64,000 bases of DNA from Candidatus Dojkabacteria bacterium (GTDB taxonomy: Bacteria; Patescibacteriota; Dojkabacteria; J137): the NCBI GenBank assembly GCA_030950485.1, contig JAUZRK010000021.1, positions 5,498 to 69,497 on the forward strand, in the 5' to 3' direction. Below are positions 19,523 to 64,000 of this stretch, piece after piece. Position numbers and translations under genes: made by a program. The notes under the pieces are model-generated. The model was not told the origin of the DNA. It saw only the letters and a list, made by a program, of their open reading frames with translations, and ran no database searches. Each line of letters begins with the position of its first letter. Position 1 is the stretch's first letter.

Positions 19523-19553
19523 ATAATTATTCTATCGTATTTTATCTTCTATT

Positions 19554-21316: not shown

Positions 21317-21407
21317 AGTTTGTAATGATAATTGGGTAGTGTAGTATAGCGTATGAACTTAGATTTGTTTAGTGAATTCGATTACACTAATATAAATTTA
21401 TGGAGAA

Positions 21408-30294: not shown

Positions 30295-30335
30295 AACTAA
30301 ATTATAATCTTAAAAGTAATGCTACTGCAAAATTA

Positions 30336-41332: not shown

Positions 41333-44300
41333 ATGACTCTGGCAACTGAAAAGTTGAATAGGCAAAGAGGTATTAAGTTTTACTTAAGCGCCATATTCAT
41401 ATTGGCGTTCCTCTTTACGTTATTACTATTATTCTCTGGTGAAGGATCTTCGTCAGGTTCAAATTTTGGTAATTCAAATTCAAAGAATGATTTAGCGGTT
41501 ACTGATTTCGGTGACTTTGTTTTGACGAGCTCGCAGTTGAGTGATGGAAGCATTTCAAGGGCTAAAATTTTAAACGGATCTGTAACACTAGATAAACTGG
41601 CAAAAGATACGATTATACAATATCCCGATGGGAAGACTGGCCCTGTAAATGTTAGTAATAAATCAATTTTAGAATGGCATCTTGCAGATGGCTCGGTAAG
41701 TACAGCCAAAATCTTAGATTCTGCAATTACTACAGCTAAACTTGCAGATGGCTCAATAACTGAAATTAAAATAATAGATGGTGCAATATCTTCAGGAAAA
41801 ATTAGAGATGGAAGTATTCTTGCAATTGATCTTTCAAATGGAAGCATTATTACTGCAAAAATTGCAGATGGTGCTATTACTGAGTCGAAAATAGCTAGTA
41901 ATTCAATTAGCACAGATAAACTTCAAAATGGATCAGTAACACTAGATAAATTAGCCCCAGGTGTACTAGATGGTATAACTATAAATAATGATTCATTAAA
42001 TGGAGATGTTTTAATTGATAATTCCGTTAACGGTTCAAAAATAGAAGATAACTCAATTACTGGCGATAAAATTGAAAATAATTCAGTTACGGGGGATGAC
42101 ATTCAGGATAATTCAATTACGGGAGATGATATTCAAGACAACTCAGTTACAAATCTTGATCTTGCAGATGGTTCTGTCACAGGTGTTAAATTGGCAGACA
42201 ACTCAATAAATGGGGCTAAGTTAACTAACTTATCTATAACTGCTGCAAAGATAGCACTAGGAACAATAGCAGGAGCTCAAGTAGCAAGTGATGGAAGTGT
42301 AGTTAAATCTATAATAGGAGGAGGAGGTATACAAGTTACTAATAATAATAATGGTAGCTATTCTCTAAAGCTCATAACTACTTGTTCTGATGGACAGGTA
42401 TTATCATGGAATAGTGCTGGTACGGATTGGGTCTGTACAACACCTCCAGGAGGAGCTGGTCTTTCAGACACAGATGATTTAGCAGAAGGTACGTTAAATC
42501 TATACTATACAACTACAAGATTCAATACAGACTTTAACTCTAAAGATACTGATGAATTAACAGAAGGAACAACAAACCTTTATTATACAGAAGCAAGATT
42601 TGATTCCTCACTTGGTGGAAAAACACTAGACGACATAACAGAAGGGACAACAAATAAATTTTATACAGAAACAGCATTTGATAATTCATTTAGTAATAAA
42701 GATAGTGATGATCTTACAGAAGGAGCTTCAAATCTTTTCTGGACACAAAGTAGATTTGATATAGCTTTTGGACTAAAAGACACAGACGACCTAGCAGAAG
42801 GAGCAACAAACCTATACTATACAGAAACAAGATTTGATAACTCATTCGCAGGAAAGTCATTAGACGATTTAGCGGAAGGAGTTACAAATAAATTCTATAC
42901 AGAAACAGCATTCGATAATTCGTTGAGCGGTAAGACAACAACAGATGTAGCAGAGGGAACAAACTTATACTATACAGAAGAAAGAGCACAAGACGGAGTA
43001 GGAACAGCATTAACAGATACAACAGAAATAAACTTTACATATAACGATGCAGGAAATGCAATTACAGCAGATTTAATAGATGGATCAATAGCAGAATCTA
43101 GATTAGATGTATTAAATGCACCAACAGACACATATTCATTAACATGGAATCAAGGATCAGGAAAAATGGAATGGGTAAATGTAAGTGGAGGAGGAGCAAC
43201 AACATTTAATAGTTTATCAGATACAAACTTAACAGCAGTAGCACAAGGAGACGTACTATATTATGATGGAACAGACTGGGTAAATTTAGCAGCAGGAACA
43301 AGTGGACAATTCTTACAAACCGCTGGAGTGGGTGCAAATCCAACTTGGGCTAATATTAGTGGATCTCTTGCTAGCGGAACTCTTTCAGGAAATACTTTAG
43401 AATGGAATGGAGTTGCCTGGGTAGAAAGCTCAGCATTAACAAATGACGGAACAGATGTAGCTACGAGTGGACAATTTAGTTCAAATGGAAATACAATAAT
43501 CGGAAGTGACGCAGCAGATACATTATTAATAAACGCAATACTACAAGGATCAAATCCATTAGTATTTGAAGGAGCAACAACAAATGCATTTACAACAACA
43601 TTAGCAATAACAGATCCAACAGCAAATAATACAATAACATTACCAGATAGTTCAGGAACACTAGTTCTAACTTCTGATTTAACAGGATTAGCAGCAACAA
43701 CTGATTTCGATACAGAAACAGAACTAGAAGGATTACTAACAGATGTAACAAACATATATACAAATAACGACGGAAACCTAAATGATGACGATCTATCAGA
43801 TAACGATACTGGAGATTTAGCAGAAGGAACAAATCTATACTTTACAAACGAAAGAGTAGATGACCAGGTAGCATTATTAGTACAAAATGGAACAGGAATT
43901 TCATGGGCATATGATGATGGAGCAAATACATTTACACCAACAATAAGTTTAAGTGCATTCGATACAGATAATTTAGCTGAAGGAGCTACAAACTTCTATT
44001 GGAGCGATACAAGATTTGATAACGCTCTTGCATTAAAGGACACAGACGATCTAGCAGAAGGGTTAACAAATCTATACTATACAGAGACAAGATTCGACAA
44101 TTCATTCGCAGGAAAATCATTAGACGATTTAGCGGAAGGAGTTACAAATAAATTCTACACAGAAACAGCATTCGATAATTCATTATCAGGAAAAACACTA
44201 GACGATATAACTGAAGGAATAACAAACCTATACTTTACAAACGAAAGAGTAGACGACCAAGTAGCCTTGTTAATAAAAGATGGACTAGGAATAAATTGGA

Positions 44301-47014
44301 CATACGATGATAGATTAGGCACATTAACAGGAGTAGTAGATTTTACAGACTTCGATACAGATAACTTAGCAGGAAAGATACTAGACGATATAACTGAAGG
44401 AATAACTAATAAATTCTATACAGAAACAGCATTTGATAATAGCTTGTCAGGTAAAACAACAACAGATGTAGCAGAAGGAACAAATCTATACTTTACAGAC
44501 GAAAGAGCACAAGACGGAGTAGGAACAGCATTAACAGATACAACAGAAATAAACTTTACATATAACGATGCAGGAAATGCAATTACCGCTGATTTAATAG
44601 ATGGGACAATAGCAGAAACTAGGTTAGCCGTTCTAAACGGACCTGCTGATGGACAAATTTTAAGTTGGAACCAAGGATCAGCGCAGATGGAATGGATCAA
44701 TAATAGTGGAGGAAGTTCTACATTTAGTGCTTTATCAGATACAAACCTAACAGCAGTAGCACAAGGAGACGTACTGTATTATGACGGAACAGATTGGGTA
44801 AACTTAGCAGCAGGAACAAGCGGACAATTCTTACAAACACAGGGAACAGGTGCTAATCCAATTTGGGCTACAAGTCCAGGTGCTCTTGCAAATGGTACAC
44901 TAGCTAATAATACTTTAAGATGGAACGGTTCAGCTTGGGTTGAAAGCTCAGCTTTAACTAATAATGGTACTGATATAACAGTAAGTGGGCAACTTAATGC
45001 TAATGGAAATACTATAATTGGTGATGCAAATACAGATACTGTAACATTTAATTCAATTCTACAAGGAGCAATCCCACTAGTATTTGAAGGATCTACAAGT
45101 AATACATTCGAAACAAGTTTATCAGTAACAGATCCAACAGCAGATAGAACAATAACATTACCAGATGCTGATGGTACTGTAGCGTTAACATCAGATTTAA
45201 CTGGTTTAGCTGCTACAACTGATTTTGATACTGAGGCAGAGTTAGAAGGATTATTAACAGATGTAACAAATGTATATACTAACAATGATGGAAATTTAAA
45301 TGACGATGACCTTTCAAATAATAGTACAAGTGATCTAGCAGAAGGAACAAATCTATACTTTACAGATGAAAGAGTTGATGACAGGGTTTCAGTTGTAGTA
45401 CAAAACGGAACTGGAATTTCATGGTCATACAATGATGGGGCAAATACATTTACACCAACAATATCACTAGCTGCATTCAGTACAGATAATTTAGCTGAAG
45501 GAGCTACAAATTTATATTACACTGGCGCAAGATTTAATTCTGACTTAGCTACAAAGACAACAACAGATCTAACAGAAGGAACAAACCAATACTTTACAGA
45601 TGAAAGAGTAGACGATAGAGTAGCTACACTTGTACAAAATGGAACAGGAATTACATGGTCATACAATGATGGAGCAAATATATTTACACCAACAATTACT
45701 CTAGGAACAAGCATTGATAGTTCAGAAATCGTCGATGGTACTATTGTAAATGCAGATGTAAACGCAGCTGCTGGAATAGTAGAAAGTAAATTAGCACTAA
45801 ATTTCCCAACACATACTAATGCAAATGATCCAACAGCTGCTCAGAAAGCAAAGCTTGTTGAATTAGTTGATGCAGCAGATACTAATATAGCAATAGGTAA
45901 TAAGAATATTTCTAATATACATACACAAAACACAGATACAGGAACTACAGCTACTAGCTTTCAAATAAATTCAGGAGCAAGCGGTCCTAGATTGAAAAAT
46001 AGTACAGGTACACTTCAAGTAAGAAATGCAGCAGATAGCGGATTCGCTAATTTACAAGCTGCAGATATTCAAGGAGGAAACTTAAATCTAACCGGAAATG
46101 TAGATTTTGATGGAGTATTATTAGCAGGTTCTACTGGCGTTCAATTAACAAACGCAGTTGGTAAAATCCAGGCTATTTCATCAACATATTTTGCAGACTT
46201 ATCAGGAGCTAACTTAACAGGACTTAATGCAACTCAGCTATTATCAGGTACAGTCCCATCCGCAAGATTAAGTGGAAGCTATACAGGAATTACAGGACTT
46301 GGAACAGTAACTACAGGAGTTTGGAACGGTACTAGAGTAGATATTTCAGATTATACAAATTTAGCAGCAGGAACAAATCTAACACTTGTAAACGATACTT
46401 TAAATGTTAATGATGCATTCTTAACAAATACAGGAAATGATTCTACAACAGGGATACTAACAGCAGCAGGATTCGTATCAACACCTACAGGATCAGCACC
46501 AATCTCTCCAACAGCGGGACAAGTTTATTACAATTCGTTAGATAGTAATATGTATGTTTACGATGGGACTCAGTGGGTAGATCTAACAGTACAGTCTGCT
46601 GGAGGTGGAGGAGCAGCTTCAATGGTTCACTATGCTGAGGCAGATGCTCAGCAAACAAATGCTACACTAACAATGACACCTGCTCTTAGTACGACATTTA
46701 CGCCAACAACAACAGGTAATTACCTTATCGAGTATACATATGAAATTAGTAATTCAAGTTCATCTAAATTAAGTCTTTCTAATGTAGATTATTGTACTGG
46801 TACTGTAGCATGTCCTGGAGGAGGAACTATAATAGCAAATCATACACAGTCAGCTTTTGGCTCTGTTAGTTACTCTATGGTCTCAGGTTTCAAGCGAGTT
46901 TCTTTAACTGGTGCTCAGCCATACAATGTAGATGTAAGTCACAGAACAGAGGTGACAGCTGGAGGAGCTACTTCATACATTCAAAATGTAAGAGTAATTG
47001 TTTGGAAGCTATAG
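41333..47014 (+). CDS. Giant (1893 aa) membrane-anchored fibrous surface protein built of short tandem repeats, with phage-tail-fibre-like character
   Basis: N-terminal TM segment. About 25 copies of an ~11-aa repeat (e.g. DGSITEIKIIDGAISSGKIRDGSILAIDLSNGSIITAKIADG). More than 20 copies of a ~19-aa repeat (TDDLAEGxTNLYYTExRFDxSxxGK). Gly/Thr/Asn-rich beta-rich segments. Internal ~1.5-kb tandem duplication. Confidence 0.7.
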   Translation: MTLATEKLNRQRGIKFYLSAIFILAFLFTLLLLFSGEGSSSGSNFGNSNSKNDLAVTDFGDFVLTSSQLSDGSISRAKILNGSVTLDKLAKDTIIQYPDGKTGPVNVSNKSILEWHLADGSVSTAKILDSAITTAKLADGSITEIKIIDGAISSGKIRDGSILAIDLSNGSIITAKIADGAITESKIASNSISTDKLQNGSVTLDKLAPGVLDGITINNDSLNGDVLIDNSVNGSKIEDNSITGDKIENNSVTGDDIQDNSITGDDIQDNSVTNLDLADGSVTGVKLADNSINGAKLTNLSITAAKIALGTIAGAQVASDGSVVKSIIGGGGIQVTNNNNGSYSLKLITTCSDGQVLSWNSAGTDWVCTTPPGGAGLSDTDDLAEGTLNLYYTTTRFNTDFNSKDTDELTEGTTNLYYTEARFDSSLGGKTLDDITEGTTNKFYTETAFDNSFSNKDSDDLTEGASNLFWTQSRFDIAFGLKDTDDLAEGATNLYYTETRFDNSFAGKSLDDLAEGVTNKFYTETAFDNSLSGKTTTDVAEGTNLYYTEERAQDGVGTALTDTTEINFTYNDAGNAITADLIDGSIAESRLDVLNAPTDTYSLTWNQGSGKMEWVNVSGGGATTFNSLSDTNLTAVAQGDVLYYDGTDWVNLAAGTSGQFLQTAGVGANPTWANISGSLASGTLSGNTLEWNGVAWVESSALTNDGTDVATSGQFSSNGNTIIGSDAADTLLINAILQGSNPLVFEGATTNAFTTTLAITDPTANNTITLPDSSGTLVLTSDLTGLAATTDFDTETELEGLLTDVTNIYTNNDGNLNDDDLSDNDTGDLAEGTNLYFTNERVDDQVALLVQNGTGISWAYDDGANTFTPTISLSAFDTDNLAEGATNFYWSDTRFDNALALKDTDDLAEGLTNLYYTETRFDNSFAGKSLDDLAEGVTNKFYTETAFDNSLSGKTLDDITEGITNLYFTNERVDDQVALLIKDGLGINWTYDDRLGTLTGVVDFTDFDTDNLAGKILDDITEGITNKFYTETAFDNSLSGKTTTDVAEGTNLYFTDERAQDGVGTALTDTTEINFTYNDAGNAITADLIDGTIAETRLAVLNGPADGQILSWNQGSAQMEWINNSGGSSTFSALSDTNLTAVAQGDVLYYDGTDWVNLAAGTSGQFLQTQGTGANPIWATSPGALANGTLANNTLRWNGSAWVESSALTNNGTDITVSGQLNANGNTIIGDANTDTVTFNSILQGAIPLVFEGSTSNTFETSLSVTDPTADRTITLPDADGTVALTSDLTGLAATTDFDTEAELEGLLTDVTNVYTNNDGNLNDDDLSNNSTSDLAEGTNLYFTDERVDDRVSVVVQNGTGISWSYNDGANTFTPTISLAAFSTDNLAEGATNLYYTGARFNSDLATKTTTDLTEGTNQYFTDERVDDRVATLVQNGTGITWSYNDGANIFTPTITLGTSIDSSEIVDGTIVNADVNAAAGIVESKLALNFPTHTNANDPTAAQKAKLVELVDAADTNIAIGNKNISNIHTQNTDTGTTATSFQINSGASGPRLKNSTGTLQVRNAADSGFANLQAADIQGGNLNLTGNVDFDGVLLAGSTGVQLTNAVGKIQAISSTYFADLSGANLTGLNATQLLSGTVPSARLSGSYTGITGLGTVTTGVWNGTRVDISDYTNLAAGTNLTLVNDTLNVNDAFLTNTGNDSTTGILTAAGFVSTPTGSAPISPTAGQVYYNSLDSNMYVYDGTQWVDLTVQSAGGGGAASMVHYAEADAQQTNATLTMTPALSTTFTPTTTGNYLIEYTYEISNSSSSKLSLSNVDYCTGTVACPGGGTIIANHTQSAFGSVSYSMVSGFKRVSLTGAQPYNVDVSHRTEVTAGGATSYIQNVRVIVWKL

Positions 47015-47082: not shown

Positions 47083-47538
47083 ATGGCAAAACTTAAAGGA
47101 CTGGACGATAAGTCATCAATGAATTCAATGGTATCAGGAGAAACTATTAAAATGATTTTATTCTTTTTAATAGCTGTGTTTACATTAACAATAACTATCT
47201 TTAGAGATAATCTAGCCCCTATTTCAAATGACGATCTATATAGTTCAGATTACCAAGCTGTATTTCTTACAAATGGACAAGTTTATTTCGGAGATGTTAC
47301 TGATGAAAGATCTGATGTAGTTATCCTAGAAGATATTTATTATCTACAAATAAATAAAAATATTCAGTCACAAGATCCAAATGAAGCAGCAACTGAAGTT
47401 CCTGATATTAGTTTAATAAAATTAGGAGAAGAGTTACACGGGCCAGAAGATCAAATGATTATAAATAAAGAGCAAGTTCTATTCATTGAGAATCTTAAAT
47501 CTGATTCAGACGTAGTAAAAGCAATTCAGTCAAACTAA
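47083..47538 (+). CDS. Hypothetical protein with an N-terminal TM anchor
   Basis: TM helix (MILFFLIAVFTLTITIF) followed by a soluble domain. Confidence 0.4.
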   Translation: MAKLKGLDDKSSMNSMVSGETIKMILFFLIAVFTLTITIFRDNLAPISNDDLYSSDYQAVFLTNGQVYFGDVTDERSDVVILEDIYYLQINKNIQSQDPNEAATEVPDISLIKLGEELHGPEDQMIINKEQVLFIENLKSDSDVVKAIQSN

Positions 47539-47559: not shown

Positions 47560-48762
47560 ATGGAGGGGAATAATTTACAAAATAATAGTGTTATTCAGCC
47601 TTCATCTAATGCTTCGGATCTAAGCTCACAAGTAAAAGACGAAATCTCAATATTAGAAAGAAAGCTAGATAATTCTGATCTTCCTCCAGATTTAATGGAG
47701 AAAGCTAGAGCAATGATCATAAGGCTTAAAAAAATGTCTATTGGAGGCAGTTATTCAAATGAATATGAACCTGTATCTGAATACATTAACTGGATAATAC
47801 AGCTTCCTTGGGATATATATACAAAAGATAATCTTGATATGGCTCATGCTAAAGAAAGTCTAAGTAAATATCATTACGGATTAGATCCTGTAAAAAATAG
47901 AATTTTAGAATATCTAGCAGTAATTCACCTTCAAGCTATGAATAATAAAGCTAAGGCTGAAGAGCTTGCTGCTCAGGGTGGTACAGCAGAATCAAATTCT
48001 GATAAGATGAAAAAGCTTACAGGTAATTCATCTAATGCTCCAATTCTTTGTTTTGTTGGAATTCAAGGTGTTGGTAAAACATCGTTAGCAAAATCAATCG
48101 CAATAGCATTGAATAGAGGTTTTATGAGAATACCTTTAGGAGGGCTTGGTGGAGTTGCAGAAATTAGAGGACGAGCAAGAGGAACTATTGATCCTGAACC
48201 TGGACAAATTATAAAGGCTTTAATAAGGACTGGATCGATGAATCCATTAATATTGCTGGACGAAATAGATAAAGTTAGTAGTGATACTGGTTTACGAGCA
48301 GATGTAATGGCTGCATTACTAGAAATCCTAGATCCAGAACAGAATTCTACTTTTATTGATAAGTATTTAGATTATCCTGTTGATCTTTCAAAGTGCATGT
48401 TTATAACAACTGCGAATAATCTTGGGGGTATTTCAGCAGCACTTCTAGATAGGTTAGAGGTTATTAGATTTGGTAGTTATAATGATAATGAAAAAATGAC
48501 TATAGCTAAAGATTATCTATTACCTAAAGTTAGAAAAGCTACTGGTTTAACAAAAGAACAACTTGATTTTGCACCTGATGTTTGGCCATTAGTAATAAGG
48601 CCTTTAGGTTTTGACGCAGGAGTAAGACAATTAGAAAGAACTTTAACAGATCTTGCTAGAAAGGTCGCTTTAAAAATAGTCCAAGGAGTTACAGATGGTG
48701 TAAAAGTAACTAAAGAAAACTTCCGTGAATTTATACCCGAAGATATCGGTATATACTCTTAA
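47560..48762 (+). CDS. Lon-type AAA+ ATPase module lacking both the N-terminal LON domain and the S16 protease domain
   Basis: High similarity to the Lon ATPase (YINWIIQLPW, HYGLDPVKNRILEYLAV, ILCFVGIQGVGKTSLAKSIA, LLDEIDK, DPEQNSTFIDKYLDYPVDLSKCMFITTAN, LLDRLEVIRFGSY, GVRQLER). The ORF stops where the protease domain would begin. Confidence 0.75.
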   Translation: MEGNNLQNNSVIQPSSNASDLSSQVKDEISILERKLDNSDLPPDLMEKARAMIIRLKKMSIGGSYSNEYEPVSEYINWIIQLPWDIYTKDNLDMAHAKESLSKYHYGLDPVKNRILEYLAVIHLQAMNNKAKAEELAAQGGTAESNSDKMKKLTGNSSNAPILCFVGIQGVGKTSLAKSIAIALNRGFMRIPLGGLGGVAEIRGRARGTIDPEPGQIIKALIRTGSMNPLILLDEIDKVSSDTGLRADVMAALLEILDPEQNSTFIDKYLDYPVDLSKCMFITTANNLGGISAALLDRLEVIRFGSYNDNEKMTIAKDYLLPKVRKATGLTKEQLDFAPDVWPLVIRPLGFDAGVRQLERTLTDLARKVALKIVQGVTDGVKVTKENFREFIPEDIGIYS

Positions 48763-48818: not shown

Positions 48819-49382
48819 ATGAAAATAGTTCTAATAGATGATGATCTAATAATTAGGGAAGCCGTTAAATCAGCTTTTAGTATCCTTGAAGATACTTTAA
48901 GTTTTTCTCTTGACGTCTATACAGCAGAGAATGGAGCAGAAGGCCTAGGTTTAGTTTATGTTACAAAAGCGGATGTAATTGTTATCGATCTTACTCTTCC
49001 TAAATATAGTGGAAAAGAAGTCCTTGAATACATTATAAATAATCACGGCCTTAACCCAAAGACAAAGCAAATAATTCTTCTTCATGAAAATGATGATTAC
49101 GCAAGCTTTAGATCCCCTAAAAATATTTCCCTTATTAATAAATCTAAAAACGACTTTACTATAAAGCTTGTTAACAGCATTACAACTTTTTACCATTTAG
49201 AAGGTAAGAAATTTTCATCAATACAAAAAATAAAACTTAGATTAGTAAATAGAGTAATCATATGGGGGAACTATTTAGATATCGTTAGTAAGAGGTTATT
49301 TACTGGAGGTTTATTTATGAAGATAGTTTTCCTGATCCCTTGGATTGTAATTCAAATTATGGGGGGATGTATCTTACATTAA
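48819..49382 (+). CDS. Stand-alone receiver (REC) domain protein; the annotated C-terminus probably over-extends into the next gene
   Basis: IVLIDDD...DVIVIDLTLPKYSGKEVLEYI has a CheY-like fold signature. No output domain. Confidence 0.5.
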   Translation: MKIVLIDDDLIIREAVKSAFSILEDTLSFSLDVYTAENGAEGLGLVYVTKADVIVIDLTLPKYSGKEVLEYIINNHGLNPKTKQIILLHENDDYASFRSPKNISLINKSKNDFTIKLVNSITTFYHLEGKKFSSIQKIKLRLVNRVIIWGNYLDIVSKRLFTGGLFMKIVFLIPWIVIQIMGGCILH

Positions 49383-50542
49383 TGTATTTAGTAAATGGTA
49401 AGGTTAAAGAAATAAATATAGATCAGCAAAAGAAAGACGATATTAAACTTAGAGCAAAGACCTATCCTGTACTTGGAGGTATTGGAGCTGGAATAATGCT
49501 ACTTTTAATTCAAGTTGGTCTTATAGTTCTAGGTGGATTCACTATAGGTAAAAATTCGCTAACAGATACTTTAGCAGTTTCAGAAGGAATTGAAATTAAC
49601 TTTTCAAAGGATGATGCGATAGAGTATAAATTGAATAATATTGGTCTAATGGATAATGGGGCGATCTTACTTAATGATATAGACTTATATGTTGAAGAAG
49701 AAACTATAACTCCTGAAGTTATTAAATTACCTATAGAGGATGCTGAAATTATTCAGCCAACATCTTACAGTGATGTTTTAGAAATTGAAGAGGAGGTAAA
49801 TGATCTAATAATATTTGATGATGAATTAGAAATTACTAATCCAATTGAAGATACCACTTTAGAATCAGATTTAGATTCCGAAGAAATAGTGATTGAGAAT
49901 CTTGATTTACCTGTGGAACAGAAAGAAGAAGCTATAATACCTGACGAAGAACAAGTTTCACAAGACTTAATTGAAAATAAGGCAGAGGTACTTGGTGTTA
50001 GAACTAGTGAAACACGAGTAGGTAGCATTCAGCTATTAAATCCTATCGAATACAAATACATAATAAGCGTAGCTGAGATTGGAAGTAAACCAGAAAATAC
50101 TGAAATTAAATATCAGATTAGTAATGATGGGTTAAGTTGGTATTATAATTGGGAAGGATTATGGGTAGAAACATTTGATGATGAATTTAATTCAAATACA
50201 ATTGAAGATCTAAATTTAAATTTAGAATCATTCGAAAAAACAGGAGAGATTTATTTTAGAATTTATCTAATAGGTAATAGTAACTCTAGTCCTATTCTTG
50301 AGAAATTAGTAATACAAGGAGATTTTGACAGTATTCTAGATATAGAGATTCCAACTAGTAGTCCTATAGATCTCGAATCAACAGATGAATTAATAGAAGA
50401 AAATATTTCTAATATAAATATTGATGAATCATTAAGAAATATTGAAACAAAAATTTACAATGCAAGTTTTTATAACGGTGAAAAAGTTGTTAGAGGTAAG
50501 GTAACTGATCTATCAGATAATCTTATAGGAGTGAATTATTAG
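49340..50542 (+). CDS. Membrane-anchored acidic protein; possibly the N-terminal portion of the downstream giant CSLREA gene
   Basis: TM helix (VLGGIGAGIMLLLIQVGLIVLGGF) then an acidic Glu/Asp/Ile-rich linker. The downstream 50543..50708 has no independent gene. Confidence 0.4.
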   Translation: MDCNSNYGGMYLTLMYLVNGKVKEINIDQQKKDDIKLRAKTYPVLGGIGAGIMLLLIQVGLIVLGGFTIGKNSLTDTLAVSEGIEINFSKDDAIEYKLNNIGLMDNGAILLNDIDLYVEEETITPEVIKLPIEDAEIIQPTSYSDVLEIEEEVNDLIIFDDELEITNPIEDTTLESDLDSEEIVIENLDLPVEQKEEAIIPDEEQVSQDLIENKAEVLGVRTSETRVGSIQLLNPIEYKYIISVAEIGSKPENTEIKYQISNDGLSWYYNWEGLWVETFDDEFNSNTIEDLNLNLESFEKTGEIYFRIYLIGNSNSSPILEKLVIQGDFDSILDIEIPTSSPIDLESTDELIEENISNINIDESLRNIETKIYNASFYNGEKVVRGKVTDLSDNLIGVNY

Positions 50543-50708
50543 CTAACTTAGCTAATTATGAAGTTGTAATAGAATATCCAACCGGAGAGCTTATTGGTAA
50601 GACCGAGCTATATTTGAATAAAAAAAAGAGATAGAATTTACTTTAAGAACTCCAAATAGAGCTGGTGGATATGTTCGAGCATATCTAGTAAATAAAGATG
50701 ACTCAAGT

Positions 50709-53700
50709 TTGAGATCATCTACTTCTGAAAGTAAAGAGAATTCAACATTTACAGTAGACTCAACTCTAGATAATTCAGACTCTGGAATAGATGGATTATG
50801 TGATGATGGGTTAGGTAATTGTACTTTAAGAGCTGCTATTCAAGAAGCAAATGGATTAGGTGGATCAGATAATATTAATTTTGATATACCTGATACGGAT
50901 CCAGGATATGTAGATTACGATGGAGGAGCAGGAGATTCGTTAGATGGAGACGATTATTGGAGTATAGCTCCAAATACAGTTCTACCTGTAATTACAGATG
51001 TTGTCGTAGTAGATGGATCAACACAGAAAGCAAATCAATCTGATACAAATACATTTGGACCGGAGATACAGATTTCTGGAATAAATTATATAAATAATAC
51101 AGGTAATGGACTTTCATTCGTAGGAATCACAGGAAGTGGTTCAATAGTAAATGAGTTAAATATAATAAACTTTGGACGAGCGATTTACATATCTAGTTAC
51201 GACTTAACAGTAACTAATTCATATTTAAATCCAGACGCAAAGGGATTATCGTACGATTCAGATGAGAATCAAGTTACAGGGGTTTACGCGGTCAGCGATG
51301 CTATAAATCAGATAAATACATTGAACATTGGATTAGAAAATGAGGGTAATGCGATGATGAGTGAGTTGGGATTTGGTGTTTGGCTAGAGGCAGGTACATC
51401 TCCAACAGAAGTTCAAGTAAATGTAATGGGTAATAAATTTGGACTGGATCCGACTGGAACAATAGCAACAGATATAAGCACACAGCATCACTTGCATATT
51501 ACTGGAAATGTAAGTGTATTAGTTGGTGAAGCTGGAATTGGTAATAGAAACTATTTTGCGAATAGTAATGTACATTTATTAATATCAGGTGATAGTGTAA
51601 GTAATACAATAGAAATATATAACAACTTTTTTAATACAGATATTAATGGTACGGGACACTTCCCGGCTAGCGGATCAGCATTAAGCTTAGGAGGACAAGG
51701 GGGAACTACTGTAGGAGCCCCCGGAAAAGGTAATTTAATACAGACTCATACTTCAGAAGTTGTTATGGGTGTGGGTGCTAACTCAGGTACGACTACTGTT
51801 CAGAATAATACTATATTTGCATCAGTTGGAATTAGGTTAAAGGGACCCAATAAAATATTTAGAAATAATTTTGTAGCATCAGAAAGTACAAAATCTGATC
51901 CTTATTTCGGAGTAACTAATTCAGGGATAATTATCGATGCAGGTGGATGGAGCGGGCGAGCGATTGAGCTTTTTTCAGCTGATCCAGATGACGAATTACT
52001 ACTAACAGGTAATTATTTTGACGGGCACAACAGTATAATGGAACCTTATGATCCAAATACACATATAACCATCGGAGGACAAGGAGTAGATGCAAATTCA
52101 CTATGTATGGGATTAGAGAAGAATTGTTTTAGTAATGTAGGTAATACTACAATTATAACTAGAGATAGAGCAGCAGGATTTAACTTAGGGGGAACATATC
52201 CTGTAAATTATTCAACAATAGAATTAGATAATGAAATAATATACGATATTGGCGCAACAAAAGTACCTCTTATTGTTGTGGGTCTTGAAGGAACATACGA
52301 GTTATTCTCAGGAGATCAGAGGAGGACAGATCTTACTGACGGCTCAATTTCAATACCTATACTTAATTCTGATTATGTTACTGATATTTGGGATCTTTAT
52401 ACATATATTACAGAAATTCAAAATAGCAAAGTTGATTGTACGGATCCTCTAGATTGCCCTGGCTCCAATGGTGAAAATGAAAAAACAGTTATATTTACAC
52501 CGCCAAGTGCAGTAGGAATTGCAGATATTACTTATCCGGGAGTACAAATACCTATGTTAGTAGTAGATGAGAACGGGGATAAATTTATTGGATCTCCAAG
52601 ACTAGGCGATCTTGAAACTGGTCATTTTACTATGTTGGAGCCATTTAGTTTTGATGGATTTACAACAGATACTCCAAGTATAGATAACGGAGAACCTTGG
52701 AGTACAAGTCCGACTGCTAGTGGAACACTTAGCCCACTTACTACACCTGTAAATTACTACTATTTAATATTCCGACAAGTGACTCTGGTTATGTAGATTA
52801 TAATGGAGGAGCAGGAGAATCATTAGATGGAGACGACTATTGGAGTATTCGGCCAGTAACTCAGTTACCTACTTTAACTAGTTCAATAAATATAGATGGT
52901 TCATCTCAATCATCAAATCAGGGAAATTTAAATATATTTGGACCAGAAATCGAGATTCAAGATGGAGCGAACATTTCAAATGGATTGGTAATTACTGGAG
53001 ATACAATTAATATTGATAACATTGTTATTAATAGTTTTACGGGCCAAATAGACATTGATGGATCCGACGGAGTCGAGATAACAAATAACTACATTGGACT
53101 AGATACAAAAGCTAAATATCTTTCTGCCTTTGCTAATGGAATAGATATTCATGGCGAATCAAATAACATAATAATTGGAAATGATATTACAGATGGAAAT
53201 ATATTTGGAGGATCAGTAAATGACGCTTACGCTAATATAAATATTACGAGTACTGATAATGGTGTATTTGAGAAATATGTATCTATAAGAGGAAATTATA
53301 TCGGAATCGATCCTGTTGGGAATATTATTGGTAATAATACTGTAGACGGTATTGAGCTAAAAGGTGTTTATGGAACTTCAGTTGATATAGGTGGTCCTGA
53401 CCCATCTCATCGTAATATTATTTCTTCAACTGGAGGACATGAAGCTATAATATTAGACCTACTGGAGTTTTAGCTTCTAATTTAAATCCAGTTATAAATA
53501 TTAAGAATAACTATTTATGTACAGATGAAAATGGTAACTCTAAAAATATTAATTATATTTGTAACATAGGAATTTATATTTCCGCACCTAATATTTATCC
53601 ATATGAAGATAATAATTATCTAGACCATATAGACTTAAATATAGGGGGGGCTTAGGAGAAGGTAATGTCTTTGGAAATACTTATGGAGCAATCTACTGGG

Positions 53701-56700
53701 ATATATCACTAGGCGCAGAGGTTTCATACAATACATTTTTAAACTCAGTCTATGGTTACGGTATAAATGCTACAGCTTTTAGAATAATATCCAACTTTGC
53801 TGATATTCAAATATTAAATAATTTTTTTGGAGTCACTTTATTAGATCCATATTTTGGGAAAGGATCGTATCCAGATATAGGAAGTTTAAGTGCGATTCCA
53901 ATGGGCTCATATAGTACAACTATAAAGGGAAATGTATTCTCTTTAGTTAATGTAGGAGTAGAGGCTAATAGTTATATAAAAAATGATACTTCAACATTTC
54001 ATACTCCACTTGTAACGATCGGAGGTACAGGAGTCTTAGCAGATTCACTTTGTGGTGATTTATATGGTCTTGGTAATGTAGAACAAAACTGCTTTATTGA
54101 TTCTACGTATATAGGTGAATTTAGAAATATGTTACCAGAAAATGAGTCTACTTACTTAACTAGTGATAACTATTTTGAGGTAAATGGAGATATTAATACT
54201 GTATTATCTACTGAACTAAAGGCGGTAAAATATATATGGTCTACAAGATTGGAATTAGTAACTGGCACTAAAAGGCGTACTGATTTAGCAGATGGGGTTA
54301 TTACTTTTGATGAATTTTTCGGTGATTACTTTATCTATAATGATGACGTAGGAGTTCCAGACCCAGGGGTAGAGTTTAGAACATTACAAAATATAACCAC
54401 AGATTGTACAGTGTCATTAGATGACTGTAACGGAGTTGATGGAATTCTAAATAAATCATCATTCTTATACAACACTAATGGGTTGCTATGGTTAAACGGA
54501 CAATTAATTTCTAAAGATGTATTGCAAGATAGAACTATTCTAGATAGAAGTGATTTGGCTTTCGATGGAAATCATATTGCATCAAAAAACTTTAGTCTAG
54601 ATGGTAATAGTCTCACTGATCCAGCTACAGATGATTTTGGAGCTATCTGGACGTTTGATGATACAGCTACAGGAGGTATAGCAACGGCTGACTACGGCCA
54701 TATTCAAACATTACAAATACAAGTAGTAGACGCGAATCCGATCTGGAATGGATCAGAATGGGTAATAACCGTAGATTCAACAAGTGATGAAGATAATGTT
54801 TCAATAAGTGGTTATGAGCAAGACCCAGGAGTAGCATATTCAGGCGGAGGTCAAGAAGTAGTAGACGGACTTTCATATGGAAAAACCAGTTTAAGAGAAG
54901 CAATAATAGTAGCTAATAACTTTGCAAATCCAGTAACGATTAAATTTGATATTCCAACAACAGACCCAGGTTATATTAATCCTGATGGAAGTAGAACATC
55001 AACTGCAGAGCCTGCAGGTACTTATACAGCAACAACCTCAGGTTATTGGTACACATAGTAGATGCAAGTCCCACTCACTACATTATAGACAAAAACGAAA
55101 GCTTAACTATAGATGGTTACTCACAGCCAGGTACAAGTCGAAATACTGCATCAATTGGCCAGCCATTTAATGCAAAGCTAGGGATTCAATTAAATCTTTA
55201 TACAATAACTATAAATAATGCTAATGACCTACACATCACTGGATTAAATATTCAAGGTCACGATAATGCAATTAGATACGATAGTGTTGATACAACTCCT
55301 CCTATTAATGATATTTGGCTCGAAGGAAATTACTTTGGTACAAATATTGACGGTTCTAACCTGGCAGTTGCAGGTTATAGTTCATCAGGAGGAATTAGGT
55401 TTACACAAGAAATGTACGGGTTTGTCATTGGTACTAATGGAGATGGTGTAAATGACGCTGGAGAGTTTAATATTATAAGTGGTCAGAATCAGCCGATTAG
55501 TGGGTTAATTACAATATATTCATTTGACCCAATTACAGATGTCAGAATTTCGGGAAATTATATACATACTGACTATACTGGAGAAGTTTGCTCGGATTGA
55601 TGGAGCGATATTTGGAAGTAATCTAGATGGTATATCTGATGACAATGAATCAAATGTATTCGGATGTATTGATACTAACTATAGGTCTTTTATCCGAGCT
55701 TACAATTTGAATAATTCGATAATAGCGAATAACTATATGGGAGTTTCTCCAAATGGTACAAATATAATGAATAAAGCTTTTGGGTCAAACTATACATTAG
55801 ATATTCAAAATACGGACAATCTTAGAGTAGAGAACAATATTATTAATTCTTATAACTCTACTGACTTAGGATCTATATATATTAGAAATGGAAATATAAA
55901 TTTACAGATAGTAGACAATGCTGTATTAGGTGGTACAGTAGGATTATCAGGTGCAACTACTGGAGCATTAATAAAAGGGAATATTTTTGAAGGATATACA
56001 GATAAAGCTATAGTTTTAACTGATGATAGTGATGGAATTACATTAGAAGAGAATACTTTTGAGAGATCTAGTTCAGTTGGTAAAGTAATTCATTTAGGAG
56101 CATTTATAGCTGATGATTTATTAAGTACTCCAAACGATCCTAATGATACAGATATTGGGGTTAATGAATTAATGAATTAATGAATTGGCCAATAATCTAC
56201 AGTGTAAATTATTTAGGTTCAGATCAATTTGAGATCAAAGGATATTTAGATGGTAATCCTTTAGAGGCTCCTTTTGATATTGAGATTTGTGAAAGTGAAG
56301 ATAATATCTCAGGGCATGGGGGTTGTACTCAAAGTTTAGATAAATTCAGTATAGTTACAGATGGAGAGTGGTCTAGAGTAGTAACATTTACTGGAGCAGT
56401 TGGAGATGAAATATTCAGTGCATTAGCAACTAATAATAATGGCTCTACATCAGAATTTGGAAATTATGTAGATACAAAACCTGAAAATATTGGAGGAAAT
56501 TGGGTAATTACAGTAAACAGTACGTCAGACGAAGACAACGTAAGTACTAATTTATATAATTGCGAGGGAGTAGTGGCACAATGCGGTGGATTTGAAGGTC
56601 CTGATGGAAAGGCAAATGGGTTGACTAGTTTGAGAGAGGCAATAATAGTTGCTAATAACTTTGCAAATCCAGTAACGATTGAATTTGATATTCCAACAAC

Positions 56701-59700
56701 AGACCCAGGTTATATTAATCCTGATGGAAGTAGAACATCAACTGCAGAGCCTGCAGGTACTTATACTTCAAAAGATAATGGATATTTTTACGTTAATATA
56801 GCCAATGGAGACTTAACTGTAACAAATTCTATTACTATAAATGGATATACACAAATAGGAAGCACAGTGAATACTAACGTATTTGGAGAGAATTTAAATA
56901 GTAATCTTATGATTCAACTTAATTTAAATTCTTACTTAATAAAATTAAATTCAAATGATAATAAATTATTAGGTTTAAATTTATATCGAAAAAATAGTCC
57001 AGTTGTACTGCAATTAAACTCTTCATCAGATAATTATATTCAGGGAAATATTTCCGGGGGGAATATAACTGGTGAATTTGCAGAAGGGACAGGTTCTATA
57101 CAAGTCTGTGGTAATTCAAATGGTAATGTAATAGGTACTGATGGAGATGGTATAAATGACGCAGGTGAAAGAAATTTAATAATCAGCAATGAAGACCTTG
57201 CAATAATTGGTAATTCCGAAGGTTTAATATACTTTCAAGGAACTCAATCGAATAATGTTATAGCGGGTAATTATATAGGAGTAGACAGATCTGGTAATAC
57301 TTGTGCAGCTGGTAATTTTTATCGGATGGCAGTTCACTCATTTTCAGGAACAAAAACTAACTTTAGAGTTGGTACAGATTTAAATGGAATTAGTGATTCT
57401 GAGGAATCCAATATAATTGGTTGTGTAAGTGAAGGAACAAGGCTAGTGGGACTAACATTACTAGTACCTATATCTGTCTTTAGCATCATTAACTGGCAAG
57501 ATAGCACTATAATTGGAAATTATATTGGAACAACTCCAAATAACGATATTCTTAAAGCAGATTTTCCAAGATCCTTAATGCTTATACAATCTACATCATC
57601 CTCAAATCTAAATATTAGAGATAATACTTTTGCATATAACTTAGGCGAGGGGATAGTAGTATCTAACAATGATGTATCACTAACTTTCTTTCAAAATAGA
57701 ATCTACTCAGTTACAGGTTTGAACATTGATTTAGGCGGGGCATCGCAGAGTATTGGGGATGGAGTAACAGCAAATGACTCGGGTGATATAGATGCAGGCC
57801 CAAATGATTCAATGAACTATCCAATAATAACAAGTATTCGATATATAGGATCAGATCAATTTGAAATAGAAGGAACATTGGATGGAAATATATTAGAAGC
57901 ACCATATGAAATAGAAATATGTGAAAGCGATGATCACCCTTCGGGACATGGAGGATGTATACAAGCATTAGATACATTTACATTAAATACACCTGGAGAA
58001 TGGGATAGGACAGTCACATTAACAGGAGCAATTGGAAATGAGAAATTTAGTACATTGGCTACTAATTCGAATGGATCAACAAGTGAATTCGGAGAAACAA
58101 TAATAACAGATGCAAATCCATATTATGATGGAAGTAAATGGACAATAACTGTAGATAGTACAAGTGATGAGGATAATGTAAGTACATCAGGAAGTGATGA
58201 TGGAGATGGAGCATATTCAGGAGGAGGATTAACAGGTATAGATGGGAATGCAGACGGGAAGACTTCTTTAAGAGAAGCAATAATAGTAGCTAATAATTTT
58301 GCTAATCCTGTGACTATTGAGTTTAATATTCCTACTAGTGATCCTGGTTGGAATACAATTGAATTTCCAAATGCATTTAAAATAAGTTTCACTGGAGCAG
58401 CACTTGAGTTAAACAGTGAAAGTACAATTATAGATGGAAAATCACAAACTAACTTTACTGGTGACACTTCACAAGTAATATTAGAACCTGAAAGTATGCC
58501 TGTTATAGGAAATGCAACTAGGGGGCCAGAGATCAACATTTATTTCAGCTTGAATACAATTTCAGCACCACTTAGATTAAATGCAGCAGATATAACAATC
58601 GATTCTATGGGTTTTTATAATAATCCAATCAATTTAAGGCGGCCACTTACCCTATACGACCAAGCAATAAATGCAACAATCAGAAACAGTGACTTTGTAA
58701 ATAACGAAGGAGGCATTTTTGTAGCACCTGGAAATAATGGACTTACATTACAAAGTAGTGTGATAAGAAATAACGCAGAGTATGATTATCGATTTGATGG
58801 TATTGAAAGCGAGTTTAGTGGTGCATTGATAGAAGATAATCAGTTTGTTTCAAATGGTGGAGCGGCTATAGGGTCACAACAGACGGTCACTCAGGGAGAA
58901 GGAGCAATTATTAGAAACAATTTGATAAAAGCTAATGGGTTTAATCCAACTTTACAAGGCCCAGGAACAGCGATAGCGCCTTCTCCACCTGGACCTCCAG
59001 CTATAACAATGAATAATATTCAAATTTATGGGAATTCAATTGTAGGTAATTCTAGATTTGGAATCCTTGTCTCATCTGGAGTTCAAGGTATAACCTTACA
59101 AGGAAACAAAATCTATGGTTCTAGTGAATCAGATCTAGAAATTACAAATAGTCTCATGGACTTTAATGTCTTAGATGGAGATGGAATTAATATAAACGAC
59201 CCAGGTGATGCAGACACGGGAACAAACGACCTAATGAATTCACCAGTAATTGAAAATATAATATATAGAAGTGTTGATAAAACATACATAATAAGTGGAG
59301 ACTTAGATAATGAGGTAGTCGGAGAGGGACCAAAAATTATAGAAATTTGTGTGAGTCAAAATACTCTAAGTGGGAACTGTCTAGAAAGTGTAGGGCTAAC
59401 TTTAAGCAACAGTCCATGGGAGATAGAAGTACAAGTTAGCGGTAGTTATGGGAATCCAGCAGATCTGATGTTTAGCGCTTTAGCGACAAACGCATTAGGA
59501 TCTACAAGTGAGTTCAGTAGCATACATGCAGTAGATGTTATTCAAACTCCTGTAACAGGATCTCTACAATATGATATAACACTAGTCTCTCCTATAAATA
59601 ATGCTCAGCTAATAAATCAATTAACTCCAACTTTAGACTGGAACCCAAGTAGTGATCCAGAACTAGTTATATACAGAATTTATCTTGATGGGGTTTTTAT

Positions 59701-60934
59701 AGGCGAAGTTGATTCATCAATTACAGAACTTACAATTCCTGGAGACTTAGAACTAAATCAAAGCTATAACTGGCAAGTTAAGGGATTTAGAATAGATGAT
59801 AGTCTTAGTGGTGAAAGTGATCTTTGGACATTCAGTATAGTTACTGAAGATGAACAAGAAGAAAATGAGCCAACGGATGAGAATGAGCCTACTGATGAAA
59901 ATAATGGTGAGAATAATGAGGGAGGAAATACTGATAATCCTAAGCCTATTACACCAAATAATATCCCAACTTCATATCCTGAAGAAGAAGAAATTATAAA
60001 AGTACCAGATCAGACAGTTGTTGACCTTGGGACAGATCAACCAATACAAGTTCCAGTAACTGAAGGAATATTTAAACTAAAAGAAGATAAGTTTGATGTT
60101 TGGCTTACTGTACCGGTTATAACTGGAGGATCTCTAGCCGCAGTTGCAGCAATTAACAACATATTTGGATTCCTTTTTGGATGGTTGTTTAGTAAAAAAA
60201 ATAAATACTGGGGATTTGTTTTTGATGAAGAAACAGAAACTGGGGTTTCATTTGCTACAATCAGACTATATAGGAAACTTGAAAATGACAGAAGAGAAAT
60301 AATTAGTGAAAAGGTTTCAGATCTTGAAGGAAAATATGGATTTGTAGTAGAGAAGTCAGGTACTTATCAAATTGAAGTAAGAGCATCTGGATTTGGTCCA
60401 AGAATTATAGATAATATAGAAATTAATCAGGGCAGAGAAGTAATTCAAGATATTGGATTACTAAATATTAGTTCATCAAAAAAGTCTGATATTAGTTTTA
60501 ATAAAAAGAAATTATTTAAATTAATAAATATAGGACTTTTTATATTAATGTCTAGCGGGTTTATCTACTCACTATATGCATTAATTAAAAGCCCGGTGCT
60601 AAGTAATTATTTCTTTACTATTGGATATCTTATCTTTACTGTACTTAATATTTTAGGATACATTTTCAAGCATAAACATAAAGCTGGAATTGTATTAGAT
60701 GAATCTGGAGAACCAATTAAAGGAGCAATTATTAGACTATTTCAAGGTCCTGACCAAGTATTGTTAGCTATGTCTAATGCTAACGGAGAGTTAAAAGAAA
60801 ATATTGAGAGCGGAGAATATAGTATTTTGGTTTACAAAGAAGGTTTCATAAAGATATCTAATTATTTAATTAATGTAACTGAAGGAGGTCAGCTAGGAGA
60901 AAATATTGTTTTAGAAAAACAAGAATTAAATTAG
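50709..60934 (+). pseudogene. Giant CSLREA-domain / right-handed parallel beta-helix surface protein (over 3300 aa if contiguous), fragmented into at least six ORFs by frameshifts; ends in a two-pass membrane anchor with two carboxypeptidase-regulatory-like domains
   Basis: Four CSLREA-like modules (CTLRAAIQEANG...NFDIPDTDPGY, then three copies of TSLREAIIVANNFANPVTIxFDIPTTDPGYINPDGSRTSTAEPAGTY). Many PbH1-like turns (GNYIGID, NNYIGLD, GNYFGT, ANNYMGV). Three ~100-aa repeats ending LATNxNGSTSEF. C-terminal TM, CarbopepD_reg-like (GFVFDEETETGVSFATIRLYRK...DLEGKYGF), TM, CarbopepD_reg-like. Pieces: 50709..52796, ~52764..53473, 53901..55058, 55046..55600, 55524..56180, 56180..60934. Confidence 0.65.
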
Positions 60935-63033: not shown

Positions 63034-63987
63034 ATGAGCTTAAATAATACTAAAAAAATATTTATAGATATTTCAGAAGAAGTTACAAATGTAACTTCAC
63101 AGATAATTCATTCTCAAGAAGAAAGAGTTATTCTTGTTGCTCCTGAGAGCTCTTTAATTTTTTCTAATCTAATAAGTCTAAGTTTAATTCATAGAATGGC
63201 GAGCAAATATAATAAGCAAGCTATTTTAGTAACGGAAGATGAGTTTGGAATATCAAGTGCACAAAGAATAGGATTTGTAACAGTACAAAAAGTTAGTCAG
63301 ATAAATGAGGAATTATGGGACATAGCAAAAGATAAATTATTAAAATTTAAGTCAGATCTTGAAAGGAAGCTAAAACAGGATGATGAGATAGAAGAACTAA
63401 GAAAAGATATAATAGAGCCAATAGATGCGAAGATAGATCCAGTGGAAGAAAGTGACATTAGCGAGAATAGCGAGGAACCAGAAAATGAAATAAATAATAA
63501 TAGTGAAGAAGTTGAATCTACAGAATCTACAAACAATGAAGCTAACCAGAAAGATATTTCATTTAATAATTTTCAAAAGAAAGTTTCAAAACCTACATTC
63601 AAATTTATAACAAAAGGTAATATTGCTATTCTTCCTGGACAAGATGTATCTAAAGTAAGAAAAGAAGAATCAGTATCTGAAAGAGTTCAACCAAGAGATA
63701 ATCAGAATACATTTGCGGGAAGAGATTTTAAAGGAGAGGAAGAAAAAAAAGAAAGTTTAATTTCTAAACTATTTCATTTAGGAAAAGAAAACACAAGTAA
63801 TATAAGTTCACGAACTGAAAGATTATTAAAGGGTAGAGAAAAACCAAAATCAAATAAAAAATTAAATACAAAATTAAATACAAAAGGGATTTTTATTGTA
63901 TTCATTTTAATACCAATATCAACTTCTAAGGCTTCTTCGTCTCCACCAGCTTTAGCCATTGCTTGTTTTAAGAAGCGGTCCCGCTGA
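63034..63987 (+). CDS. Hypothetical acidic low-complexity protein downstream of ftsA; the 3' portion may be spurious, since it overlaps a minus-strand ORF that runs off the window
   Basis: ORF only. The minus-strand frame ...DPEDQRDRFLKQAMAKAGGDEEALEV... is open from the window edge to about 63774. Confidence 0.3.
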   Translation: MSLNNTKKIFIDISEEVTNVTSQIIHSQEERVILVAPESSLIFSNLISLSLIHRMASKYNKQAILVTEDEFGISSAQRIGFVTVQKVSQINEELWDIAKDKLLKFKSDLERKLKQDDEIEELRKDIIEPIDAKIDPVEESDISENSEEPENEINNNSEEVESTESTNNEANQKDISFNNFQKKVSKPTFKFITKGNIAILPGQDVSKVRKEESVSERVQPRDNQNTFAGRDFKGEEEKKESLISKLFHLGKENTSNISSRTERLLKGREKPKSNKKLNTKLNTKGIFIVFILIPISTSKASSSPPALAIACFKKRSR

Positions 63988-64000
63988 TCTTCTGGGTCCA

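Follow-up and report, generated by a model that had tools for sequence, protein, structure and literature searches.

Multi-lesion bacterial pseudogenes are dispensable genes inactivated by frameshifts, and they occur in host-associated and reduced genomes. Changes of reading frame are also the basis of contingency loci, with the CTCTT repeats of the Neisseria opa genes, the tetranucleotide repeats of Haemophilus and the poly-G tracts of Campylobacter as examples. In addition, homopolymer and other indel errors of the consensus occur in long-read metagenome-assembled genomes (MAGs). We analysed a 64,000-nt stretch of DNA (hereafter the window) of a Candidatus Dojkabacteria bacterium, a member of the candidate phyla radiation (CPR) (assembly GCA_030950485.1, contig JAUZRK010000021.1, positions 5,498 to 69,497). 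A giant gene at 48819-60934 on its plus strand is interrupted by nine frame breaks. Comparison with intact homologues and with a second public assembly, GCA_030949735.1, suggests that this gene, which would have encoded a giant membrane-anchored surface protein, is a true pseudogene that was inactivated recently and by several lesions, a reading to which we assign a probability of about 0.6.

The giant gene resembles multi-lesion pseudogenes in having intact homologues and several lesions of different types (slippage at homopolymers, small indels, internal deletions). Lesions also occur in further dispensable genes of the same genome, namely ABC exporters and an aldehyde dehydrogenase. It differs from them in that none of its nine lesions is a nonsense codon and every fragment is open in its own frame, so that the decay would be very recent, and in that its host is a CPR bacterium, a group whose pseudogene content has been little studied. 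As a recent pseudogene it would be a fairly ordinary case. With contingency loci it shares a giant surface-protein open reading frame (ORF) that holds a non-triplet tandem repeat and G and A homopolymers, where a change in length shifts the frame. In contrast to contingency loci, its tracts are short and equal in length in the two assemblies, most breaks lie off repeats, the ORF cannot be restored by one tract change, and the repeat is not conserved in relatives. Long-read consensus errors would likewise produce frameshifted ORFs, a deletion bias and breaks at some homopolymer sites, and GCA_030949735.1 shows exactly this artefact. However, the window is correct at every differing site that was judged, the lesions avoid essential genes, and they include an 8-nt duplication and junctions with lost codons.

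The extent of the gene was determined by tblastn searches with intact homologues and by an alignment of the first 650-790 residues (alignment A1). An earlier sequence-only reading had placed a CSLREA/beta-helix gene of about 10 kb at 50543-60934. The end at 60934 was confirmed, whereas the start had to be moved to an ATG at 48819, from where the window is collinear with the intact homologues P0001, P0002, P0003, P0008 and P0009. The disrupted gene hence measures 12.1 kb and comprises ten coding pieces in three frames; when these were joined, the repaired product was 4035 amino acids long without internal stops. Three of the pieces have the following content.

48819-49367, plus strand: piece 1, frame 2, receiver (REC) domain and first hydrophobic segment.
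50628-52763, plus strand: piece 4, frame 2, first CSLREA-like motif (CTLRAAIQEAN), beta-helix region and GEPW domain.
56186-60934, plus strand: piece 10, frame 1, 1582 amino acids plus stop, two further CSLREA-like modules, Beta_helix, Ig-like repeats, hydrophobic segments and two CarboxypepD_reg domains.

The repaired protein consists, in order, of a receiver domain, two hydrophobic segments, about 3500 residues of CSLREA-like, beta-helix and Ig-like modules, a hydrophobic segment, a CarboxypepD_reg domain, two more hydrophobic segments and a second CarboxypepD_reg domain. The hydrophobic segments lie at approximately residues 160-188, 217-245, 3758-3788, 3902-3920 and 3929-3947. Across alignment A1 the N-terminal order is receiver domain, two hydrophobic segments, a domain with the pattern YQ[LI]S-x-[ND]...W[YF]Y, and the first CSLREA-like motif. 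Piece 1 matched Pfam Response_reg (PF00072) with 37.2 bits against a cut-off of 30.2 (E 3.6e-9). Residues D57 and K108 are invariant in the alignment, and an acidic cluster is present at residues 7-9. The N-terminal domain is accordingly a predicted response-regulator receiver domain with a candidate phospho-acceptor Asp and a conserved Lys. In the last piece, two domains matched CarboxypepD_reg (PF13620; 61.1 bits, cut-off 32.3), and the stretch 56168-60931 matched Beta_helix (PF13229; 36.5 bits, gathering score 25.9). A sequence search of the PDB matched no solved structure to the giant protein.

The giant protein resembles the CSLREA/right-handed beta-helix giant surface proteins (TIGR04214, PF13229) in its four C/T-[ST]-L-R-[EA]-A-I motifs, in a Beta_helix match above the cut-off and in the names given to its homologues by JGI. 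In contrast to CSLREA proteins, it scored below the cut-off for NCBIfam CSLREA_Nterm (TIGR04214; 17.7 bits against 25, E 0.0024, residues 645-678 of the repaired protein), and its motif is internal and repeated rather than N-terminal. Furthermore, a receiver domain is fused to its N terminus, and its C terminus bears hydrophobic segments together with CarboxypepD_reg domains. To judge from these scores, the label 'CSLREA' denotes motif-level resemblance only.

The claim that a long gene is broken by frameshifts was borne out. Six frame changes occur at the places named before, within 50622-60931, where the plus strand is stop-free in seven overlapping pieces.

50622-52793, plus strand: stop-free in frame 2.
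52733-53470, plus strand: stop-free in frame 1.
53443-53652, plus strand: stop-free in frame 0.
53616-55055, plus strand: stop-free in frame 2.
54995-55597, plus strand: stop-free in frame 1.
55509-56177, plus strand: stop-free in frame 2.
56168-60931, plus strand: stop-free in frame 1.

The total of 'at least six' proved an underestimate, as three more breaks were found upstream of or at the start given before: the G6 run (49361-66), a non-repeat site (about 50521-41) and the A8 run (50620-27). The nine breaks are listed below.

49361-49366, plus strand: lesion A, a G6 run where the frame changes from 2 to 1, as if one base were lost; with G7 the reading would be ...IQIMGGMYLTL...
50521-50541, plus strand: lesion B1, frame 1 to frame 0, without repeat context and bounded by stop positions.
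50620-50627, plus strand: lesion B2, an A8 run where the frame changes from 0 to 2; with A9 the reading would be LYLNKKKEIEFTLRT, which aligns with the homologues without a gap.
52734-52775, plus strand: lesion C, frame 2 to frame 1, where about 80 module codons are absent.
53443-53470, plus strand: lesion D, frame 1 to frame 0, without a homopolymer longer than 3; the homology of the frame-0 piece to P0002 residues 945-1000 was judged by eye.
53644-53650, plus strand: lesion E, G7 run, frame 0 to frame 2; G5 or G8 restores the frame.
55040-55058, plus strand: lesion F, where the frame changes from 2 to 1, with one or four bases fewer than in the paralogous module.
55585-55600, plus strand: lesion G, frame 1 to frame 2, the sole break of +1 type, with about 12 codons missing against P0001 and against the paralogous module.
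56161-56186, plus strand: lesion H, three copies of TTAATGAA (+8 nt), frame 2 to frame 1.

Four of the nine breaks are located at simple repeats (G6, A8, G7 and the triplicated 8-mer), three are small indels outside repeats, and at two the sequence also lacks codons (about 80 and about 12). Eight breaks act on the frame like the loss of one base, among them lesion H with its additional 8 nt, while lesion G acts like the gain of one base. The giant gene occupies 12.1 of the 64 kb but contains 9 of the 12 detected frameshifts (binomial P = 4e-5).

At lesion H, the window reads g TTAATGAA TTAATGAA TTAATGAA TTgg at 56160-56188, with the 8-mer triplet spanning 56161-56184. Tandem Repeats Finder reported the array at 56161-56186 with a period of 8, 3.2 copies and a match of 100%. 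It is the sole perfect short non-triplet array in the window, and no such array appeared in 100 shuffles of the sequence. Two copies would give ...GVNELMNWPIIYSVNYLGSDQFEIKG (...GVNELMNWPII...), in agreement with the N-x-L-M-N-[YF]-P motif of the homologues and with the internal paralogues NDSMNYPIITSIRYIGSDQFEIEG and NDLMNSPVIENIIY (NDSMNYP and NDLMNSP). The claim that three copies of the 8-mer shift the frame, whereas two keep it open, thus holds. The codons AAT GAA TTA ATG AAT T, which encode NELMN, yield the two-copy state as a by-product; the internal paralogous NELMN-type motifs use codons different from those of the array.

The break that had been noted at a G homopolymer near 53643 was also confirmed in the sequence and corresponds to lesion E. 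Here, G5 reads IGGLGEGNVF, ungapped against IGALGKGNLF of the homologues, which implies an expansion by two. Both the 8-mer triplication and the G run have the form of slipped-strand-type lesions, as the earlier reading had recognised. The breaks reported at 52796 and about 55600 are frame changes indeed, but codons are also missing there, about 80 at the first and about 12 at the second. For lesion C, only 23 nt of the window match residues 1303-1386 of P0008, a VDANP...VDSTSDEDNVS...TSLREA block that includes a CSLREA-type motif. The junction connects non-homologous module positions, and collapse of a repeat was rejected as its origin for this reason. Lesion F lies directly after an internal repeat of 96.5% identity.

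Several other explanations for the frame breaks were considered and rejected. An alternative genetic code does not apply, as the breaks are frame changes rather than in-frame stops and the genes of the relatives end in TGA, TAA and TAG. The shifts sum to zero in three groups (A+B1+B2, C+D+E and F+G), but they are not compensating frameshifts, because stops interrupt the original frame in the stretches between them, whose homology is confined to the shifted frames. Programmed frameshifting or a tRNA that reads quadruplets was dismissed too, since eight of the nine lesions need a -1 shift and the sole +1 site is TCGG rather than TCCG. A tRNA gene at 36188-36259 (plus strand) scored 56 bits against Rfam RF00005 and has an abnormal anticodon arm, for which ARAGORN gave the four-base anticodon cgga. 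Its loop-closing pair is C-A, its D-arm resembles that of tRNA-Gln, and it is identical in GCA_030949735.1. The frameshift sites of the giant gene do not fit this tRNA.

A protein search with the 1588-residue C-terminal piece retrieved intact proteins of 2000-2700 amino acids, several of which begin with a response-regulator receiver domain. The best matches were 36-38% identical in local alignments over about 40% of the query, and the homologues carry the JGI name 'CSLREA domain-containing protein'. A genome scan found the family in Candidatus Dojkabacteria and in other CPR MAGs, often with several copies per genome. Among the related loci (L003-L034), isolate HKST-UBA15 has five, DTUPAT2 three and JTS-AC489 three, and the C-terminal regions differ across the family. 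In more than 20 related loci the gene forms one uninterrupted ORF (about 1300-2460 amino acids) or runs off a contig end; none of them showed frame switching. Single ORFs of 2046 to 2464 amino acids are represented by P0001, P0002, P0003, P0008 and P0009 and by loci L003-L006, L008, L011, L021-L024 and L032. In L007, one in-frame TAA cuts the gene into 625 and 1821 amino acids in the same frame. The comparison of the same locus in relatives, which the earlier reading had proposed, hence revealed intact homologues; the 8-mer DNA repeat AATGAATTAATGAATT was absent from all 32 related loci. Judged by their predicted domains, the intact members are membrane-anchored giant surface proteins with a receiver domain, two hydrophobic segments, CSLREA-like, beta-helix and Ig-like modules, and a C-terminal membrane region with CarboxypepD_reg domains.

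Four proteins of the window have identical copies in GCA_030949735.1, and exact-protein look-ups found no further assembly. About 77 kb of the two assemblies could be aligned, with an identity above 99.9% (loci L001, L002, L035 and L036). GCA_030949735.1 is interrupted inside the giant gene, where its contig 2 ends at window position 54467 and its contig 11 starts at 55419, leaving a gap at 54468-55418 that contains lesion F. All giant-gene lesions that it covers (A, B1, B2, C, D, E, G and H) are identical to those of the window. The four repeat tracts (G6, A8, G7 and three copies of the 8-mer) are equal in length, and the lesions of the aldehyde dehydrogenase and the ABC exporters are shared too. 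Contig 11 (L001) opens, ahead of the part that aligns from 55419, with 733 nt of A/G-rich low-complexity and then GC-rich sequence (1-733). This contig end is unrelated to the window and may be chimeric or an unpolished end of a read.

Between the two assemblies, 20 indel events and five transitions were counted. In nearly all indel events, the allele of the window keeps the reading frame or agrees with the homologues; outside this judgement fall a T8/T7 run at 23151-58 and two events at 48804 and 48822, just upstream of and at the start codon. For example, IleRS is 989 amino acids long in the window but split into 649 and 328 amino acids in GCA_030949735.1, and ParA, an amidase gene and ORFs of 169 and 188 amino acids are whole in the window but split in the other assembly. 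The events that were checked inside the coding pieces of the giant gene likewise favour the window. Runs of T8, A6 and G5 are right in the window where GCA_030949735.1 fails. With none of the 20 indels specific to the window, its random indel error rate is below 14% of that of GCA_030949735.1 (95% confidence), so that fewer than about 0.4 errors are expected in the giant gene. Three indels found only in GCA_030949735.1, at 50412, 50481 and 50588, flank lesions B1 and B2, which both assemblies have, at distances of no more than 100 nt. Whatever corrected the window there left B1 and B2 standing. All five substitutions between the assemblies sit in broken genes, and none occurs elsewhere.

The rest of the window is a bacterial chromosome segment of 31% GC with genes for sigma-70, RNase Y, IleRS, YidC and YceG. 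Its 12 frameshifts are confined to four dispensable genes, while IleRS, sigma-70, RNase Y, YidC and an ORF of 1893 amino acids are intact. Besides the giant gene, the broken genes are as follows.

21358 to 19557, minus strand: ABC exporter 1; a frameshift near 20870 splits ABC_membrane, and an in-frame TAA at 20241-43 lies directly before the ABC_tran/Walker-A region.
Near 18240, minus strand: frameshift in ABC exporter 2, which splits its ABC_tran domain; the gene is in tandem with exporter 1 within 17746-21358.
28931-30309, minus strand: aldehyde dehydrogenase with a frameshift near 29330 in an A-rich context; positions 8-340 and 342-448 of the Aldedh profile lie in different frames.

The TAA of exporter 1 cannot stem from an indel error, and on the sequence as assembled this exporter is a certain pseudogene. 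The ORF of 1893 amino acids (41333-47014, plus strand, 5.7 kb) has zero frameshifts, which has a probability of 0.015 at the rate of the giant gene.

We propose that nine independent frame-disrupting lesions inactivated the giant surface-protein gene recently. Lesions A, B2, E and H would have arisen by replication slippage at simple repeats, with the 8-mer going from two to three copies. Three other lesions would be small indels outside repeats, and two would be located at the junctions that lack about 80 and about 12 codons. The first break is at codon 183 of 4035, and lesion A would halt translation about 190 codons in. Several lines of evidence argue for a pseudogene: the homologues elsewhere are intact single ORFs without frame switching; five of the nine breaks lie outside repeats, and the junction at C is unlike a repeat collapse; base-calling errors do not typically take the form of an exact tandem duplication of 8 nt; GCA_030949735.1 shares the lesions that it covers, while the window has the intact allele at the indel differences that were judged; the lesions of the window occur only in dispensable genes, where they are clustered per gene; and the five substitutions between the assemblies all fall in these broken genes. 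From these sequence comparisons, we infer that the lesions are in the DNA rather than in the consensus. The decay also appears to be recent, as none of the pieces has yet acquired a stop in its own frame. Of the explanations that the earlier reading had offered, a decaying pseudogene thus fits best, given the intact homologues, the multiple lesions and their sharing with GCA_030949735.1.

The main rival is that the breaks are, for the most part or entirely, errors of the consensus or the assembly, in which case the real gene would be intact or almost intact. The locus has internal repeats and is perhaps variable among strains or poorly covered, and long-read consensus and polishing could have left indels in both assemblies. 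Several observations weigh against a pseudogene and towards such errors. The 4035 codons contain nine indels and no nonsense codon, and an indel-dominated spectrum of this kind is unusual for neutral decay but typical of long-read consensus error. Three lesions (G6, A8 and G7) lie at homopolymers of 6-8 nt, the classic error context, and seven of the nine amount to one missing base, the usual bias of nanopore consensus. GCA_030949735.1 is evidently error-prone: indels at homopolymers disrupt its IleRS and ParA genes, and the 733 nt at one of its contig ends are junk. Its differences from the window are concentrated about 10-fold in the giant gene (12 indels and four transitions in 11.2 kb, against eight indels in about 65 kb elsewhere). 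At 1.4 per kb they far exceed the 0.15-0.25 per kb or so found elsewhere and peak at 48.8-50.6 kb; the assembly also splits into two contigs in this gene, and coverage at contig ends explains the peak only in part. This concentration suggests a locus that is hard to call, owing to low coverage, strain heterogeneity or internal repeats. Moreover, the two assemblies may not be independent and may derive from the same sample or even the same reads; with zero substitutions outside the broken genes they could share one source, and the shared lesions would then not be an independent confirmation. On the other side, the window has the intact allele in nearly all 20 indel differences, including homopolymers up to T8, and errors of GCA_030949735.1 were corrected within 50-100 nt of the retained B1 and B2. 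The exact duplication of 8 nt and the junction of non-homologous positions that lacks about 80 codons are not base-calling errors. Essential genes and the adjacent repetitive ORF of 5.7 kb are spared (P = 0.015), and at least one gene of the window, which has a TAA nonsense codon, is certainly a pseudogene. The lesions are neither scattered regardless of essentiality nor confined to homopolymers or changes of 1-2 nt, as only three of the nine are at homopolymers. Set against related loci, the distribution of homopolymer lengths gives no sign of a technical cap, although the window's A/T runs (ten of 8 nt, none of at least 9 nt) are uninformative in this respect, as related short-read loci drop off alike. 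Read-error indels, already named as an alternative in the sequence-only reading, are thus weakened by the intact alleles of the window, and we keep them as a possible but rather unlikely explanation.

The sequence-only reading had favoured slipped-strand phase variation. In such a working contingency locus, changes in the length of the 8-mer array or of the G and A homopolymers would toggle the surface protein, and the other breaks would be sequencing errors. The four breaks at simple repeats, at each of which a one-step change in length restores the local frame, are compatible with this, and the product is a surface-type protein, the usual class for such switches. This claim is nevertheless not supported, given nine breaks, five of them outside repeats and two with lost codons: nine corrections would be needed, and no single tract change restores the ORF. 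Contingency tracts are usually longer than three copies of an 8-mer or runs of 6-8 nt. Furthermore, the four tracts do not differ in length from those of GCA_030949735.1, even though many other homopolymers do vary in that assembly, the 8-mer repeat results from the codons of a conserved NELMN motif and is found in none of the relatives, and G/C runs of at least 6 nt are only about 2-fold commoner than in related loci. A functional switch is accordingly most improbable. Exact-match scans of metagenome and genome contig collections for the 8-mer region gave no matches and so supplied no natural copy-number variants. Slipped-strand mispairing is a good explanation for the origin of lesions A, B2, E and H, but it is not evidence of a switch; since no single reversion restores the product, the repeats would record how some of the mutations arose. 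A further alternative is that indels accumulate at this locus specifically and continuously, so that the nine shared lesions and the 12 additional indels of GCA_030949735.1 are all real. The roughly 10-fold enrichment of differences in the giant gene, together with four transitions there and none in intact genes, would fit this, as would the dominance of indels in both comparisons. However, all 12 extra events are on the side of GCA_030949735.1 and none on that of the window, the errors of that assembly in essential genes show that extra indels need no biological cause, and no mechanism is known. We therefore regard ongoing accumulation as very improbable. The broader notion of a biological indel excess, in which slippage-type and other indels (the nine shared lesions and up to 12 more in GCA_030949735.1) would build up in this one 12-kb gene of a near-clonal Dojkabacteria population at a much higher rate than substitutions, is improbable too; if true, it would point to a locus-specific indel hot spot or to population-level switching-off of a receiver-domain-coupled giant adhesin. 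A literature search found no repeat- or indel-mediated variation of surface proteins in CPR bacteria and nothing bearing on this locus.

Several other features of the window were recorded. The intact ORF at 41333-47014 had no Pfam match. It contains 78-nt tandem repeats at 42619-42928 and 44040-44239 and an internal duplication of 1.25 kb with 79% identity, and it is probably another large surface protein. Two smaller ORFs separate it from the giant gene, at 47083-47538 and 47560-48762; the latter, on the plus strand immediately upstream of the giant gene, encodes an AAA+/Lon-lid ATPase. Two overlapping ORF pairs may be frameshifted genes.

17209-17738, plus strand: ORF pair in different frames with weak LigT/2',5'-RNA-ligase matches.
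38782-39158, plus strand: ORF pair that meets at a G6 run (38969-74), without a family match.

An ORF of 257 amino acids at 26842-27615 (plus strand) is listed with a Pfam Heliorhodopsin (PF18761) match in the gene table of GCA_030949735.1. At the far end of the window, positions 63918-64000 diverge abruptly from GCA_030949735.1 (contig JAUZSD010000011.1, L001 from 9235 onward). Past 63918, a 668-amino-acid ORF continues in GCA_030949735.1, whereas the ORF of the window stops at 63987 (317 amino acids) and its tail codes on the opposite strand, which indicates a rearrangement or a misjoin in one of the assemblies.

For annotation, these results mean that the ten ORF fragments are to be treated as one disrupted gene of 12.1 kb, and not as ten hypothetical proteins or a phase-variable adhesin. 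On the pseudogene reading, a small CPR genome would carry several multi-hit pseudogenes, of a giant surface protein, two ABC exporters and an aldehyde dehydrogenase, which bear on how episymbiont-like genomes lose functions. The architecture of the family, in which a receiver domain of cytoplasmic type is joined to a beta-helix surface protein of 2000-4000 amino acids, present in multiple copies in Dojkabacteria, suggests signal-coupled cell-surface or attachment proteins. This intact family of receiver-domain-fused giant beta-helix surface proteins is the most interesting by-product of the analysis, and may merit a separate study.

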